Below are positions 1-32,727 of a stretch of DNA of 64,000 bases, piece after piece; the stretch's first letter is position 1; each line of letters begins with the position of its first letter. The notes below the pieces were generated by a model that saw only the letters and a list, made by a program, of their open reading frames with translations, was not told where the DNA came from and ran no database searches. Source of the DNA: a virus; the IMG/VR virus record IMGVR_UViG_3300013099_000017, positions 32,001 through 96,000 of that record; one strand, given 5' to 3'. Position numbers and translations under genes: made by a program.

Positions 1-1
1 A

Positions 2-202
2 ATTCATAATAATAATGCTTGTCGTGAAAATGGTATTGTAACTATTGATGGATATAGTAATTTTTATCCATATAAACAACCGGAACAAAGTTTTAAAAAT
101 GCTGGGTTTGATGTATTAATTTTCATCCCTTCACAGGATGAAGAAGATGGATTGATTACATGTGGAAATGCTATTCTTGGGGGTAGCAAATTAAAGATTT
201 AA
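2..202 (+). CDS. 3' end of hypothetical protein (truncated by window edge)
   Basis: Open frame from base 2 to TAA at 200-202, followed by RBS GGAG and the gp44 start. Confidence 0.5.
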   Translation: MHNNNACRENGIVTIDGYSNFYPYKQPEQSFKNAGFDVLIFIPSQDEEDGLITCGNAILGGSKLKI

Positions 203-226
203 AATAAATTATGGAGATTTAAAAAT

Positions 227-1174
227 ATGGATGTTGTAGAAAACCAATTTTTGTTTGTGGAAAAATATCGTCCACAAACAATTAAAGATGTAATTTTACC
301 AAAAAGATATAAATCAATTTTTAATGAAATTGTAAAGAAAGGCGATCACCAACATTTATTGTTATCGGGTGGAGCAGGTATTGGAAAAACGACAATCGCA
401 AAAGCATTATGTAATGAATTAAAATCTGATGTACTTGTAATTAATGCTTCTGAAAATGGAAATATTGATACATTAAGAATACCTATCAGGAATTTTGCTT
501 CAAGTGTATCAATAACAGCACGAAGAAAAGTTGTTATTTTGGATGAAGCTGATTATTTAAATGCACAATCTACACAACCTGCACTAAGAAGTTTCATGGA
601 AGAATTCGCAAGAAATTGCCGTTTTATATTAACATGCAATTATGTTAATCGTATCATAGAACCATTAAGATCAAGATGTTCTGTTATTGAATTCAATTTA
701 ACCAAACCAGAAAAATTAACTGTTGCCAAAGAATTTTTACATCGTACCGAAGAAATATTGAAATTGGAAGGTGTTGAATTTGATCGTCATGTAATTGGTA
801 ATATAATTAAACAACATAATCCCGATTTCAGAAAAATATTAAATGAAATCCAAAGTAATATTGTTGATGGAAAATTAAATCAAAAATTAACTAATACATT
901 ATCTGTTAATGATGTTGAAGATTTAACAGGTTGGTTAAAAAATAAAGAATTTAAATTATTGAGAGAATGGGTTGCTTTAAATAGTGATATTAGTTTGGTT
1001 GAATTAAATCACATGGTTTATAATAAACTTGATGTTATGTTGAAACCTCAATCAATTCCGGAAGCAATTATGATTATGAATGAATATCAATATAAGGTTG
1101 GGTTTGTTGCTGATCAGGAAATTAATACAATTGCGTTCTTTACAGAATTAATGATGTCGGTGGAATTTAAGTAA
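227..1174 (+). CDS. 44: Clamp loader AAA+ subunit (T4 gp44/RFC-like)
   Basis: EKYRPQ, Walker A GGAGIGKTT, Walker B VVILDEAD, SRC motif. Confidence 0.95.
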   Translation: MDVVENQFLFVEKYRPQTIKDVILPKRYKSIFNEIVKKGDHQHLLLSGGAGIGKTTIAKALCNELKSDVLVINASENGNIDTLRIPIRNFASSVSITARRKVVILDEADYLNAQSTQPALRSFMEEFARNCRFILTCNYVNRIIEPLRSRCSVIEFNLTKPEKLTVAKEFLHRTEEILKLEGVEFDRHVIGNIIKQHNPDFRKILNEIQSNIVDGKLNQKLTNTLSVNDVEDLTGWLKNKEFKLLREWVALNSDISLVELNHMVYNKLDVMLKPQSIPEAIMIMNEYQYKVGFVADQEINTIAFFTELMMSVEFK

Positions 1175-1476
1175 TGGATAGATTGAATCTAAATGTTCAC
1201 ATGGATATTATTGATAAACTTGTTCTTAACTTAGTGTCATGTAAGTTGAATGATGAACATACCAGAATAATGACAAGTTTTATGATTGAAAATTATTTGG
1301 ATCATAATGATATTTATGATTATATAGTTGTTTGTGATGAACGGAATAATTCACATATTGATAGTGGAATGTTAATATATGAGGTTATTATATATAATGA
1401 TGATACTAATCTGTATATATTCAGGCGTAAAGTTTATGATAAAAATGGTAAAGTTATAGTGGAGGTTATTGTATGA
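1174..1476 (+). CDS. Small protein resembling tail-sheath C-terminal domain (copy 1)
   Basis: LNDEHTR...YL...IYDYIVVCDERNN...IDSGML parallels gp18-family LNxxFTR...YL...IYxYRVVCDxTNNT..VIDRNEF. Confidence 0.65.
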   Translation: MDRLNLNVHMDIIDKLVLNLVSCKLNDEHTRIMTSFMIENYLDHNDIYDYIVVCDERNNSHIDSGMLIYEVIIYNDDTNLYIFRRKVYDKNGKVIVEVIV

Positions 1477-1772
1477 GTGATAATAGTAGATTTAGTAAAT
1501 TGTTGAAAATAGTTGATGATTGTCTTTATCATTATTATACTATACTGAATGATACCACCACCAGAACAGGTTTAAAATTGATATTAAATGAAAGTCTGGA
1601 AAAATTTATTCAAGGTGATGAATTTATTATAATATGTGATGAACGTATTAATACACCAGATGTAATTGATAATCATGAATTAAGATGTTTGGTGCATGTT
1701 TATGATCAAGGTGTAGAATATTTAATCCAACGTAAATTAACATCTATGGGGTGTTCTTATTATGAAGAATGA
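1473..1772 (+). CDS. Small protein resembling tail-sheath C-terminal domain (copy 2)
   Basis: LNDTTTR...FIIICDERINTPDVIDNHEL; paralog of 1174-1476. Confidence 0.65.
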   Translation: MSDNSRFSKLLKIVDDCLYHYYTILNDTTTRTGLKLILNESLEKFIQGDEFIIICDERINTPDVIDNHELRCLVHVYDQGVEYLIQRKLTSMGCSYYEE

Positions 1773-2163
1773 TGCATTTTATTATATTGGTTTAATTAAT
1801 ACAAAATCTGAAATGCCCGAAGATTCTGAAATTAAATTAAATTATCTTCCATTTTTAAGTAATCGTAATTTTAGTTATACTATTGATACTGTATTAATGG
1901 CTAATGAAATGAATCGTTTTCCAGATTGTAGCAAAGTGCTACAATTTAAATATTTGTTTCATGCAATTAAAAAACGAAAACGTTTTGCTAAGTGGACAAA
2001 ACCACAAAAACCTTCAATAGATTTTTTGATTGTTAAAAAGTATTATGGTTATAATAACAAAAATACAGAAATAGCAATGAAACTTTTAACCAAAGCACAA
2101 TTAAAAATCATTAAATCAAAAATGAATATTGGTGGTGATAAAAAAAGGAATTATGACGTATGA
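1762..2163 (+). CDS. 62: Clamp loader small subunit (T4 gp62-like)
   Basis: YLPFLSNRNFSY, LQFKYLFHAIKKRKRFAKW, KKYYGYN; position after gp44. Confidence 0.85.
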   Translation: MKNDAFYYIGLINTKSEMPEDSEIKLNYLPFLSNRNFSYTIDTVLMANEMNRFPDCSKVLQFKYLFHAIKKRKRFAKWTKPQKPSIDFLIVKKYYGYNNKNTEIAMKLLTKAQLKIIKSKMNIGGDKKRNYDV

Positions 2164-2420
2164 AATTATTCTCAAATAATGACTATTATATTTATTGTTC
2201 TTCCCCTACTTTATGGGATACTAAAGAAGCAGGGGTAACGGGAAAATGGCGTATTGGTAATGATGGTGATTTTTTTCAAATTGAAATTTGGTATACATCA
2301 ACAAGACAAAAATGGATCTTTTTTAAAGAAAAATATCGATCTACTATATGGGTTGATGAAGGTGATATTCGAGTAAAAGAATATAACTATTATCAGGTAT
2401 TTGATTGTAAAAACACATAA
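2160..2420 (+). CDS. Hypothetical protein
   Basis: ATGA overlap with gp62 stop. Confidence 0.6.
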   Translation: MKLFSNNDYYIYCSSPTLWDTKEAGVTGKWRIGNDGDFFQIEIWYTSTRQKWIFFKEKYRSTIWVDEGDIRVKEYNYYQVFDCKNT

Positions 2421-2467
2421 TTTAATTATCCTAAATATGAATATAATAATAATATTTAGGATAAATT

Positions 2468-2920
2468 ATGAGGCAATCAAAAGAAGTTGATCCATTTTTG
2501 GATATGGGATTATTAATTAAATTAAAAGAACATGATGATTTTTTAAAAATTAAAGAAACCTTAACAAGAATTGGATATGAAGAATCAAACGAAAGCAGTA
2601 TATCAACATTACACCAAGTTTGTTATATATTACACAAACGGGGTCAATATGCAATAATTCACCAAAATGAATTGTTGGTATTGGATGGTAAAGAAAATAA
2701 AATAACGGAAGATGATTTAGAATGTAGAAATACAATAGTTAAATTGTTAAATGAATGGAATTTATTGAAAGTTGATAATCCGGAACTATTGAACTATCTA
2801 AAATTCAAACCAACACATGAAATAAAATTTGTGTCTTTTAAAGATAAAAGCAATTGGAATCTTGAAAGCCACTATAACATTGGAACTAAAAAAGGAAGTG
2901 ATCGTAATGGAAATAGGTAA
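2468..2920 (+). CDS. regA: Translational repressor RegA
   Basis: DDFLKIKETLTRIG, LHQVCYILHKRGQYAIIH, W.L...Y.IG; T4 synteny. Confidence 0.9.
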   Translation: MRQSKEVDPFLDMGLLIKLKEHDDFLKIKETLTRIGYEESNESSISTLHQVCYILHKRGQYAIIHQNELLVLDGKENKITEDDLECRNTIVKLLNEWNLLKVDNPELLNYLKFKPTHEIKFVSFKDKSNWNLESHYNIGTKKGSDRNGNR

Positions 2921-3539
2921 TTTAACAGAAGGTACAACAAAAAGTAATAGCAAGAAACAGAGTAGAGTTTCCAGACCAAAATCAGCACCACCATCCCCCA
3001 CTCCCATAGAAAAATTACCTTCATTGGGTATCTTTGAAATGTTTGAAGATGTTAAATCTATGGAACGTGCTACCAAAAATTCAGCATGTTATGACATATC
3101 ATCATATTTACCCAAAGGTAAAGCAATTAATGTATGGAATTTGAATAATCGTAAACGTGATGTATATTGTAAAAATGTATCACATCTTGAAACGGAATGT
3201 ATTGTTCTTGAACCACAAGATCGTGCATTAATTCCAACTGGTGTTCAATTGGATATTCCATTAAATTATTCTTTTAGATTACATCCGAGAAGTGGATTAT
3301 CTTTAAAAGAAGGAATTAAACTTAACAATTCCGAAGGTATTATTGATAGTGATTATTATCAGCAAGTATATGTAAGTGTGTTTAATTCTTCCGGTGCAAG
3401 AGTTTATATTGAAAATGGTGATCGTATCGCTCAGGGTGAATTACAATTAAGTGTTGTACATACAACCCGAAAAATGCGTAAACCCCCACAACAAAAAACA
3501 GATCGTGTTGGTGGAATTGGTTCAACTGGTAAAAAATAA
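2907..3539 (+). CDS. dut: Trimeric dUTPase
   Basis: SACYDI, PRSGL, GIIDSDY, RVGGIGSTG; likely start ATG 2907 (RBS AAGGAAG) rather than 2829. Confidence 0.92.
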   Translation: MEIGNLTEGTTKSNSKKQSRVSRPKSAPPSPTPIEKLPSLGIFEMFEDVKSMERATKNSACYDISSYLPKGKAINVWNLNNRKRDVYCKNVSHLETECIVLEPQDRALIPTGVQLDIPLNYSFRLHPRSGLSLKEGIKLNNSEGIIDSDYYQQVYVSVFNSSGARVYIENGDRIAQGELQLSVVHTTRKMRKPPQQKTDRVGGIGSTGKK

Positions 3540-29276: not shown

Positions 29277-29900
29277 ATGAAAAAAATTATAGTGTTAATG
29301 ATATTAAGTATGTTCTTATTATCATCTAATGTTTTTGCAGATAATAACGGAAATCTTAATCGTGTCTCCGGTGAAACAACTTCTGCTAATGTACAGGGTG
29401 TTCAATCAGGATCATTATCAGGATCATATTTAGGTTTAGATCAATCTGATCATTCTACTACAACTATTGATGCAAGTGATTTAAGTAGAAGTGTACCAAG
29501 TGTATTTTCGGCAGGTGTTACGGCAGGTGGTTCAAATCCATGTATCGTTTCAGTTGGTGGTGGTGCTGGGTGGCAAGGTGCTGGATTTAACTTTGCAAGG
29601 GCTTATAATGATGGTGAATGTCAAGTTCGTGAAAGTTTACGTTTGATTGTTGCTATTTTGCCTAACACAAGTGATGTTGGTTCACAAATGTTAATTCGTG
29701 AAACAGCGTGTCAATCTGATATTTTTTGGCAGTCAATGGAGCGTGTTTATATTGCTACAAAAGATACCCGTTTTTTATGTACAACACCAAGACCAGAAAA
29801 TAAACCAATTGCTATTCGTGATCGTGTTCAGGAAGAAATTATCAGAACACAGGCTCCAAAAAGATCATTTGAATCTCAAAAAATCAACGATGTGTTTTAA
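29277..29900 (+). CDS. Secreted protein with four Cys
   Basis: Signal peptide ..LSSNVFA; PSVFSAG..NPCIVSVGGG..DGECQVRE..TACQ..FLC. Confidence 0.75.
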   Translation: MKKIIVLMILSMFLLSSNVFADNNGNLNRVSGETTSANVQGVQSGSLSGSYLGLDQSDHSTTTIDASDLSRSVPSVFSAGVTAGGSNPCIVSVGGGAGWQGAGFNFARAYNDGECQVRESLRLIVAILPNTSDVGSQMLIRETACQSDIFWQSMERVYIATKDTRFLCTTPRPENKPIAIRDRVQEEIIRTQAPKRSFESQKINDVF

Positions 29901-29912
29901 GGGGAAAATGAT

Positions 29913-30149
29913 ATGAAAAAAATATTAATAGCTTTATTTTTAATGTTCAGTTTCAATATTGTTAGTGCTTTGGAAGTTGAACCAGTTGATGAAAATCTTC
30001 CTGATACTGATACATCTGTATTAAAATCAAATGATATGGATGATCCGGTGTTTGGGTTAGGTGATAATTTACAGGGACCGAACTCCCATTTACAATATAA
30101 CACGATACCTGTTTCACAGGGTATGAAGGTTCAACAACCAAAGTTGTAA
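29913..30149 (+). CDS. Small secreted acidic protein
   Basis: Signal peptide MKKILIALFLMFSFNIVSA. Confidence 0.7.
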   Translation: MKKILIALFLMFSFNIVSALEVEPVDENLPDTDTSVLKSNDMDDPVFGLGDNLQGPNSHLQYNTIPVSQGMKVQQPKL

Positions 30150-30173
30150 GCGTGTTTGAAATTGTACGATAAT

Positions 30174-30203
30174 AAAAAACATCAAGTGATTGGTGTTTTT
30201 TTG
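30174..30203 (+). terminator. Rho-independent terminator closing the secreted-protein operon
   Basis: AAAAAACATCAA-GTGA-TTGGTGTTTTTT. Confidence 0.75.
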
Positions 30204-30206
30204 TTA

Positions 30207-30294
30207 ATATCCCATTGTGAGTATATACATTTATTAACTAATAAACGATACTATGCTTATCGTTTAAAGATAAATTTTCAAAAGGAAATAAATA
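30207..30294 (+). promoter_or_regulatory. Class A cassette
   Basis: ATATCCCATTGTGAGTATATACA; TATACA-17bp-GATACT; leader AGATAAATTTTCAAAAGGAAA. Confidence 0.8.
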
Positions 30295-30870
30295 ATGAAT
30301 ATTGTTAATGTTGCATTTAAAAATGCAGTTGTTGAAGTATTAGCTCAATATGGTTTTCGTTTAGGTTTAAATAATCTTGATCGCAAATACAATGTGATTT
30401 ATCATGATAATATTGATCGTTTCACATTAGAATATCGTGAATTTCATGGTAGAATCTCACTCCGTTTAGATGGTACAACAATCACAAACTCTCGTAAAAT
30501 TGATTATTATGAAGATGATGAAAAAGCATTAGTCAATCTTACTTCACGGTTGAAACGTATTCTAAAAAATGAACGTGAATATAATGAATTGCGTGTCAAA
30601 CGTGATAATGCAAATCGTGATAATAAAGCGAAAATTGCAGAAAAGATTGATGGTTTCAATAATCGCAAAGGTGGTCATAGTATTGTTGTTGATCCGGATT
30701 CATTGGAAGATGAATATTCTCAATTAACTGTTTTTTATCGTTCATACGAATTTATTGCAAAAGTTGATGAAGAAGGTCTTTTATTTACAAGACAAAATTT
30801 ATTAAATAAACCAACTGAGGATTTACCATTAGATAAGTTGACAGGTATTGTTGATATTTTGGTAGATTAA

Positions 30871-30945
30871 TATCTCTTTATGGGTATTCATTATTACATA
30901 ATTAAATGTAATAATGATTTCAAGATTAATTAATAGGAAATAAAA
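30871..30945 (+). promoter_or_regulatory. Degenerate class A cassette
   Basis: TATCTCTTTATGGGTATTCA after stop; TGTAATAAT. Confidence 0.55.
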
Positions 30946-31494
30946 ATGACTAAATTATTTACTGCTAAATATGAAAGTGATGAAGATGTTGAATCATTCA
31001 CATTAGAGTTTGATGAAATTGATGAATTATTGGCAATTGTTGAACCAATTGAAGATGATTATTTCATTGATCGGGATGATATTAAAATCACTTGGAATTC
31101 CAATGCTGATGAAGGTGATGAAATTGTCAAGTTTTTGTATAAGTTGAACGATCTTACAATGGATGAAATGGTAAACACTTATGATGGTGATTATGATGAT
31201 TATCTGGAAAATGGTGATCTCTTTTATCAATTCATGTATTTAACTGAATATAATTCATATGATGCTGAAACCGCTATGGAAAAGGCTGATGATGTTTCAA
31301 TTTATCAGGGTGATGCAGAAGATTATGTGGAGCAATTCACAAAAGATTGTAATGGTGAAATTCCACAATTTTTAGAGTTTTATATTAATTGGGAACAAAT
31401 GGCAAGTGATTTTGTTCGTGATGGTGAATTGCTTGAACTTGATGATATTGTCGGTGGTGATAACGTTTGGGTTACTAATGGTAATTCAATGTAA
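30946..31494 (+). CDS. ardA: ArdA-like antirestriction DNA-mimic protein
   Basis: Very acidic; C-terminal YQGDAEDYVEQF..EIPQFLEFYINWEQMASDF..DGE. Confidence 0.7.
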   Translation: MTKLFTAKYESDEDVESFTLEFDEIDELLAIVEPIEDDYFIDRDDIKITWNSNADEGDEIVKFLYKLNDLTMDEMVNTYDGDYDDYLENGDLFYQFMYLTEYNSYDAETAMEKADDVSIYQGDAEDYVEQFTKDCNGEIPQFLEFYINWEQMASDFVRDGELLELDDIVGGDNVWVTNGNSM

Positions 31495-31504
31495 TATTAA
31501 ATTT

Positions 31505-31579
31505 GGGTCTGTAGTTCAACTGGTCAAACGTGCCACTCATAATGGCTTATTTCAGGTTCGAGTCCTGACAGACCTACCA
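31505..31579 (+). tRNA. tRNA with CAT anticodon (elongator Met or Ile2)
   Basis: GGGTCTG/CAGACCT acceptor, loop CT-CAT-AA, TTCGAGT T loop, CCA; lacks initiator G-C triplet. Confidence 0.88.
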
Positions 31580-31735
31580 AATTGAAGGATTGTATTATGA
31601 AAAAGAATAAAACAAAACAACGTAAATTGCGTAAATGTGAACAGGGTATTAAAACAAAATCTCATAATCGGGGATGTAAATATACACTTGGTGCTAATGG
31701 ATTTGTTCCTTCATTTATAGCTGATTCCTTCCGAT

Positions 31736-31743
31736 TATAAATA
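31736..31743 (+). promoter_or_regulatory. T4 late-type promoter
   Basis: TATAAATA 27 nt before ATG 31771. Confidence 0.55.
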
Positions 31744-31770
31744 CAAGCATTATATAATAAAGGAAACGTA

Positions 31771-32175
31771 ATGAAAAATGTTTTAATAGCAATAGTATTT
31801 TTTGCAATAATGATTACTATTGGTCAAGTTCGTGCAGAGAGATCACCATTTAATGAAAATTATTATAATCGGATATGGTGTGCAGAAAAAGGTGGGGTTC
31901 CAGAATTCAGATTGGATGATGGTAAACGTGTTGATTGTTTGTTACCGGATTATGCAGTCGAAGCAGATTGGGCTAATTATAAAGCCTATGAATCAATTGG
32001 ACAAGCGTTACATTATGCAAAAGAAACTAACCGGAAGGTTGGTATATTGTTAATCATTAAAGATGAAGATGGTTTTAAATGGGTACAATTGGTATCAGAT
32101 AACCTTAAATATTATCACATACATAAAGCAAAGGTGTGGTATATTATTGCTAATGAGCGATTTACCTACAAATGA
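31771..32175 (+). CDS. Signal-peptide protein with PD-(D/E)xK-like nuclease motif
   Basis: Signal ..GQVRA; RVDC..YAVEADW..ESIGQALHY. Confidence 0.55.
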   Translation: MKNVLIAIVFFAIMITIGQVRAERSPFNENYYNRIWCAEKGGVPEFRLDDGKRVDCLLPDYAVEADWANYKAYESIGQALHYAKETNRKVGILLIIKDEDGFKWVQLVSDNLKYYHIHKAKVWYIIANERFTYK

Positions 32176-32727
32176 AGGAAAATATATTATGAAATATACT
32201 GTAAGAATTATTGAAAGTGAACGGGGTTGGGGTCAAATAGTTGATGAAATTAAAGAATTCGATTCTGATGATGAAGCATATGAATTTGTAAGAAAATATA
32301 ATGCTCAAAATAATTTAGATTATGTTCCTGATTGGTATATGTATGCACAAGATCCCGTGAGGATTGAAAAATGAGTGATCAAGTACAAACAACATTAGAT
32401 CCATTAAACAAATTCACAAAGTATAAGGCTTATGAAATTGCTGATGTTTGTGGAATTTTACCAATTTGGGTTTTAAATTATAATTTTTTCGATAAACCAT
32501 TAAAAGATGCATTAAAAATTCAATATGGGTTTCCATTTGGTGATGATGATATGTCCAATTTTACTGGTAATGTTGAAGCTGATGGAACATTTACATATCC
32601 GGAAGATCCCACAAAATACCCTCTAATACGCATTGTAAGAGGTTCTGAGACATTTTATCAGTATCTTGATAGTTGGGTGGCTATTGTACAGGAAGATGGT
32701 TCATTTTATGTTGATAGAATGGATTAA

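Follow-up and report, generated by a model that had tools for sequence, protein, structure and literature searches.

The window analysed here, 64,000 nucleotides (positions 32,001 to 96,000) of the IMG/VR virus record IMGVR_UViG_3300013099_000017, belongs to an uncultured T4-like myovirus with a T4-type baseplate (gp25 and gp6/7/8 genes are present) and a polymerase 41% identical to its best cultured match. The phage sequence occurs mainly in sediment metagenomes, and no RNA dataset is among those listed as containing it. Near the start of the window, two small open reading frames, ORF A and ORF B, lie between the genes for the large and small clamp-loader subunits (Table 1). The initial annotation had placed two ORFs of about 100 residues at this junction and quoted motifs of the tail-sheath C-terminal domain in them. 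Both ORFs are real, encode 100 and 99 residues on the plus strand, and contain these motifs. The gp44 stop is overlapped by the start of ORF A (TAATG) and the stop of ORF A by the start of ORF B (ATGA), with a GGAGG Shine-Dalgarno sequence before ORF B; the start of gp62 shares 11 nt with the end of ORF B. GC and GC3 of both ORFs resemble those of the neighbouring genes. The arrangement is not an assembly artefact, because six other assemblies of the same phage repeat it with one or two substitutions. A single substitution in ORF B, at window position 1588, gives N40 here and S in other assemblies and contigs.

The two ORFs are 31% identical over 68 residues. They are therefore, as judged from this divergence, old paralogs and not the product of a recent tandem duplication.

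Table 1. Features at and around the gp44–gp62 junction; positions refer to the window unless another record is named.
Feature	Position	Strand	Evidence or remark
Genes between gp45 and gp44	L001:6458-9029; genome about 29,630-32,202; end reaches window 1-202		
gp44, clamp-loader large subunit (5' flank)	227..1174	+	PHROG 168, E 1.8e-104; Pfam Gp44_lid
ORF A, 100 aa, putative stand-alone sheath C-terminal domain	1174..1476	+	PHROG; HMM; AlphaFold2 pLDDT 87
ORF B, 99 aa, putative stand-alone sheath C-terminal domain	1473..1772	+	PHROG; HMM; AlphaFold2 pLDDT 95
gp62, clamp-loader small subunit (3' flank)	1762..2163	+	Pfam PF16790, E 6.8e-10; PHROG 225
Terminator-like hairpin within gp62	1923-1947		chance level
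86-aa ORF between gp62 and regA	2160-2420		no known family
Small hydrophobic (membrane-like) ORFs just 5' of a sheath-domain gene	L104:75-514; L105:1-93		
DruA (PF14236) domain gene	L108:9001-10233; genome 142,046-143,278		

The gp44–gp62 slot in related phages

In T4, gp44 and gp62 are adjacent, but the initial statement that this is normally so does not extend to environmental relatives: an insert of about 270–900 nt separates them in 68 of 77 related environmental loci with gp62 in view, a set that includes some near-duplicates. By inspection, the inserts include GroES-like, SET-like and small membrane-anchored proteins. The location is thus not unusual in itself; it is the sheath-domain content that is specific to this lineage. 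A GroES-like protein of about 100 residues (by inspection) is common at the junction, in L010, L011, L013–L015, L017 and about 20 other loci, and SET-domain-like ORFs occur at the gp44 loci L022, L023, L031, L032 and L043.

Word-based searches yielded nothing beyond the phage's own proteins and a single ortholog, and scans of IMG/VR and JGI with gp44 or gp62 returned only relatives at 36–55%, with no sheath-domain insert. An exhaustive profile search of 1.84 billion representatives placed the five closest non-self homologs at this junction: four of them (P0009, P0010, P0013 and P0015) immediately precede a verified gp62, and P0011 comes straight after gp44. Looking for the same insertion in related genomes, as had been proposed, thus uncovered sheath-domain genes at this position, in a number that is zero, one or two within the lineage. 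The locus L007, at 94% nucleotide identity, has an A-type gene only and no ORF B; L102/L103, whose gp62 is 80% identical, have one B-type gene only; and in a co-occurring relative, contigs from three sediment/marine runs join the end of gp44 to the start of gp62. Because the copy number varies, these phages can do without the sheath-domain genes, and this speaks against a core virion part or an essential chaperone. The suggestion in the initial annotation that they might be chaperones or virion components is weakened by the direct gp44–gp62 junction in the co-occurring relative. ORF B begins ATGAGTGATAAT and gp62 of L007 begins ATGAGTAATGAT; given these starts, ORF B could have been gained or lost precisely by microhomology. 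Small hydrophobic ORFs are found just 5' of a sheath-domain gene in two loci (Table 1); in L104 there are two of them, with near-identical starts.

Expression context

No TATAAATA late-promoter motif was found on the plus strand between genome positions 23,809 and 41,281, a range that includes the 9 kb upstream of A and B. Ahead of gp45, at about genome position 28,830, there is a sigma70-like site. Promoter candidates from a scan of window positions 1–3000 were at chance level and were set aside. From the translational coupling of A and B to the replication genes gp44 and gp62 and the lack of a nearby late-promoter motif, we infer early or middle expression; the non-late context originally proposed is therefore likely.

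Relationship to the tail-sheath C-terminal domain

ORFs A and B match the end of the tail-sheath profile PHROG 10581 (E 1e-4 and 2e-4), and in tblastn against phage genomes every function-annotated gene among the matches listed is a sheath gene. An HMM built solely from the C-terminal 120 residues of 48 complete sheaths, which were retrieved with the A/B profile and so carry some selection bias, gives 41.3 bits for ORF A and 39.8 bits for ORF B, compared with maxima of 13.9 and 10.1 bits in 1000 shuffles of each. This HMM has no other match in the contig. The 144-kb contig (79% complete) does not include the phage's own sheath gene, nor did the search of longer homologs return it; a 207.6-kb assembly of the phage exists. 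Aligned by hhalign, the eight slot proteins reach 97.3% (E 1.6e-11) against a full sheath and 1.2% against the phage's own gp25, represented by a single sequence. A profile of 25 small proteins aligns to residues 555–653 of T4 gp18 with an E-value of 1e-17 and to eCIS sheaths with E-values of 1e-7 to 0.5.

The alignment covers only the last ~110 residues of the sheath; the core domain III (PF04984) and the N-terminal arm are missing from A and B. Longer homologs listed in the search carry PF17482, most of them together with PF04984. Neither A, B nor four slot orthologs reach the cut-off of PF17482 (Phage_sheath_1C), and when A and B were scanned directly against Pfam and NCBIfam, nothing relevant was matched. 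Neither the PDB profile search nor the fold lists contained a T6SS TssC chain, an absence that is not an exclusion. PF17541 occurs in 11% of the members of one Atlas look-alike cluster (score 0.88), which is only a lead towards similarity to TssC. The sheath homology stated in the initial annotation is borne out by PHROG 10581, tblastn, the full-sheath HMM and hhalign; of the profile and structure comparisons it had called for, the HMM, hhalign and, for ORF B, Foldseek agree with a sheath origin, but a direct match to PF17482 was not obtained. As judged by these alignments, A and B are derived from the T4-type sheath C-terminal domain and are not themselves tail sheath proteins by membership. 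The NDxxTR and CDxxNNTPxxID motifs of the T4 gp18 handshake domain (domain IV; PF17482) are common to the A/B class. Unlike gp18, A and B are without domains I–III and the N-terminal arm, have lost the hinge proline and the arm motif, and are encoded among replication genes as optional, fast-evolving genes.

Motifs and modelled fold

In assembled sheaths, the handshake domain provides a platform of two strands, which subunits of the next ring complete with their N-arm and C-arm (PMC10457771, PMC13450770). The T4 counterpart is domain IV, which lies in the interior (PMC3004832). The N-terminus of ORF A falls at the position of the DRINVRR helix of the sheath. Across the eight slot proteins, the N-x-x-x-(T)R, D, C-D, N-N and I-D positions are each kept in five to eight, and the RINVRRL helix motif is lost. 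The hinge proline at the start of the C-arm, present in 47 of 49 full sheaths, is found in one of the eight slot proteins, where a short D/G/N-rich turn replaces the hinge. In the arm motif TRTGVxFxE, T and F are kept in none of the eight and G in seven.

AlphaFold2 models of both proteins contain two long helices and four strands. The ORF B model superposes on the sheath (VIA, Z 8.7, rmsd 2.2 over 80 residues) through its two helices and two strands, and the ORF A model matches sheath chains with Z 7.5–8.0. In Foldseek, T4-type sheaths fill the top rows for ORF B; for ORF A no match reached E<=0.001, and T4 gp18 stood at rank 13. The fold of ORF B also matches 2ia7 (Z 6.8) and TssE (6gj1_D, Z 6.6), middling values, and IraD matches both models (Z 7.5 and 7.0). 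Z values of 7–8 are middling, and a Z near 7 may reflect merely a common arrangement. Matches to the inositol-monophosphatase fold (Z about 8) were rejected as analogy, at 3–10% identity.

Sheath chains align to residues 1–80 of the models only, whereas gp25, TssE and IraD align to about residues 1–95, and the full-length models match closed four-strand sheets. The C-terminal arm is therefore modelled as folded back onto the protein's own sheet, which would make A and B closed monomers. The alignment behind the models consisted of sheath-like proteins, and modelling one chain by itself may artificially fold back an arm that would otherwise be swapped. A homodimer prediction for ORF B scored 0.01, which is evidence neither for nor against a dimer. 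The predicted architecture is the same small stand-alone fold as that of gp25/TssE and IraD, with the third strand folded back. The phage's own gp25 has no sequence similarity to A and B, and descent would be from the sheath, not from gp25.

Evolutionary rates

ORF A and its ortholog in L007 have a dS of 0.19, similar to the flanking genes, and a dN/dS of 0.63, compared with 0.09 for gp44 (Fisher p 0.0002) and 0.18 for gp62 (p 0.04). The ORF A ratio is not significantly below 1 (p 0.18). ORF B and P0010 share about 41% identity, compared with 80–88% for the gp62, gp44 and regA that accompany them. A two-codon deletion near position 1354 removes the conserved NNTP-loop proline from ORF A; the single-copy L007 ortholog retains it and scores 56 bits with the sheath HMM, compared with 41 for ORF A. 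The deletion and the lower score fit relaxation or retargeting of ORF A once two copies were present. None of the eight slot proteins is disrupted; all are coupled to the neighbouring genes, and they have diverged to 26–42% identity. In a quick tree, six of the eight group together (SH-aLRT 85); as this tree is weakly supported, we claim no donor or order of events.

A wider class of stand-alone sheath domains

About half of the best 150 profile matches are small proteins of 90–230 residues, and about ten of the 150 resemble contig-end fragments of sheath genes. PF17482 is matched at E<=0.01 by 51 of 78 small relatives. Two proteins checked outside the lineage have complete genes that lie in non-structural regions; one of these genes follows uvsX and gp41. 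Atlas look-alikes are clusters of viral hypothetical proteins of about 100 residues (0.89–0.91). About 25 of the small homologs among the best 150 have a twin-arginine-like leader, for which Pfam TAT_signal is matched at E<=0.01 in three; examples are P0014, P0017, P0021, P0025, P0036, P0037, P0044 and P0059. Two proteins, P0012 and P0088, were excluded as artefacts of repeats. No account of stand-alone sheath domains turned up in literature searches, and the class is apparently undescribed in the searchable literature, as a variant of a known domain.

Possible function

We tentatively prefer the reading that A and B are closed monomeric mimics that titrate a factor recognising the sheath. On this reading, A and B are optional accessory genes derived from a T4-type handshake domain and located in the variable slot that precedes gp62; translational coupling to replication genes would probably have the proteins made before the real sheath. 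Each protein is predicted to be a small acidic domain of two helices and four strands, the former C-terminal arm forming a fold-back hairpin. Such a protein would be unable to build a sheath, yet would display the conserved NDxxTR and CDxxNNTP surface. It may bind and titrate a factor, from the host or from a co-resident element, by which the sheath domain is recognised, for example an immune sensor or a tail-assembly inhibitor, and later tail assembly would thus be protected; two divergent copies could cover a wider range of factors. A mimic is favoured because the genes are small, optional, exchangeable and fast-evolving and keep one conserved sheath face. On the other side, the conserved motif could serve folding only, and ORF A has drifted from the sheath consensus with a dN/dS not significantly below 1.

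A precedent is DSAD1 of phage SPbeta, which mimics the tail tube protein and blocks DSR2 (PMC10973363). Like DSAD1, A and B would be small phage proteins that mimic a tail structural protein, and they fit the profile of such anti-defence mimics in small size, dispensability, fast evolution and a location in an early region, the timing being read from context. DSAD1 is a tested DSR2 inhibitor and a mimic of the tail tube, whereas A and B are true sheath homologs known from sequence, for which neutralisation of a sensor is our proposal. We found no paper on a defence system that senses the sheath; the tail sheath is listed only as a possible, undiscovered trigger (bioRxiv 10.64898/2026.01.04.697583).

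The decoy role raised in the initial annotation is plausible, but its proposal that strand exchange poisons the sheaths of T6SS, tailocins or competitors finds no support. The donor arm and hinge proline are lost, the models are self-closed, and affinity is to T4-type (1e-17) over eCIS sheaths; the first two points favour a closed mimic over a strand-swapping poison. On this idea, the free domain would act as a dominant-negative cap that captures the N- and C-arms of sheath subunits and stalls the sheaths of a co-infecting myophage, tailocin, eCIS or T6SS. The handshake domain does accept the arms of the next ring in sheaths (PMC10457771, PMC13450770), interference with tail assembly is a known strategy (Rta, PMC12987554), and free gp25-type domains, which likewise look closed, do accept arms in the baseplate. 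We nonetheless consider capping quite unlikely: the models fill the platform with the protein's own strands, the T4-type affinity would leave the phage's own sheath most exposed, and a lytic phage would presumably gain little from blocking the T6SS of a doomed cell. The small fold may instead have been repurposed as a host-takeover or regulatory binder whose target is unrelated to sheaths. IraD, which has a gp25-like fold, binds RssB. It has been described as resembling T4 gp25 (PMC6546054) and matches both models, and the leader-bearing homologs indicate that the domain is reused in other settings. Retention of the sheath-specific CDxxNNTP loop across very divergent copies, a loop that the phage's own gp25 does not have, speaks against such repurposing, as does the chance that the IraD match reflects only a common arrangement, and we regard it as unlikely.

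That A and B are nearly neutral leftovers of a captured sheath fragment, which an insertion hotspot tolerates, would agree with the variable gp44–gp62 junction, with the high dN/dS of ORF A and with the loss of its loop proline. Eight intact, neighbour-coupled proteins that keep the motif at 26–42% identity, and dozens of similar small proteins in other phages, make this improbable. Least probable among these readings is an assembly aid or minor virion part, which would chaperone the arms of unassembled gp18 or cap or initiate the sheath. Its fold is that of the sheath initiator gp25, and the baseplate is of T4 type; against it stand the relative with an empty slot, a gp25 already encoded by the phage, the fast evolution, and a surrounding region free of the late-promoter motif.

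Extending the titrating mimic to the whole class, stand-alone sheath domains may be widespread counter-defence decoys that imply an undiscovered bacterial sensor or inhibitor of the handshake domain, with the gp44–gp62 slot as an exchangeable cassette of zero to two alleles under arms-race selection; we hold this broader view to be doubtful. Were the proteins decoys, they would point to a bacterial defence, so far hypothesised, that senses or blocks the tail sheath, and would serve as baits to find it; were they sheath caps instead, the genes would encode inhibitors of contractile machines. The locus offers natural variants with zero, one and two copies together with a hinge-loss signature, which eases testing of the class.

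Neighbouring genes

In this phage gp45 and gp44 are separated by four further genes: a 69-aa ORF, a macro-domain gene, a Thg1 tRNA-His guanylyltransferase and a 329-aa radical-SAM-like gene. The gap between gp62 and regA, occupied here by the 86-aa ORF, contains different DNA of 187–671 nt in co-occurring relatives and is therefore a second variable slot. Elsewhere in the genome, the DruA-domain gene adjoins NAD-salvage genes, namely NAMPT and a cytidylyltransferase-NUDIX fusion.
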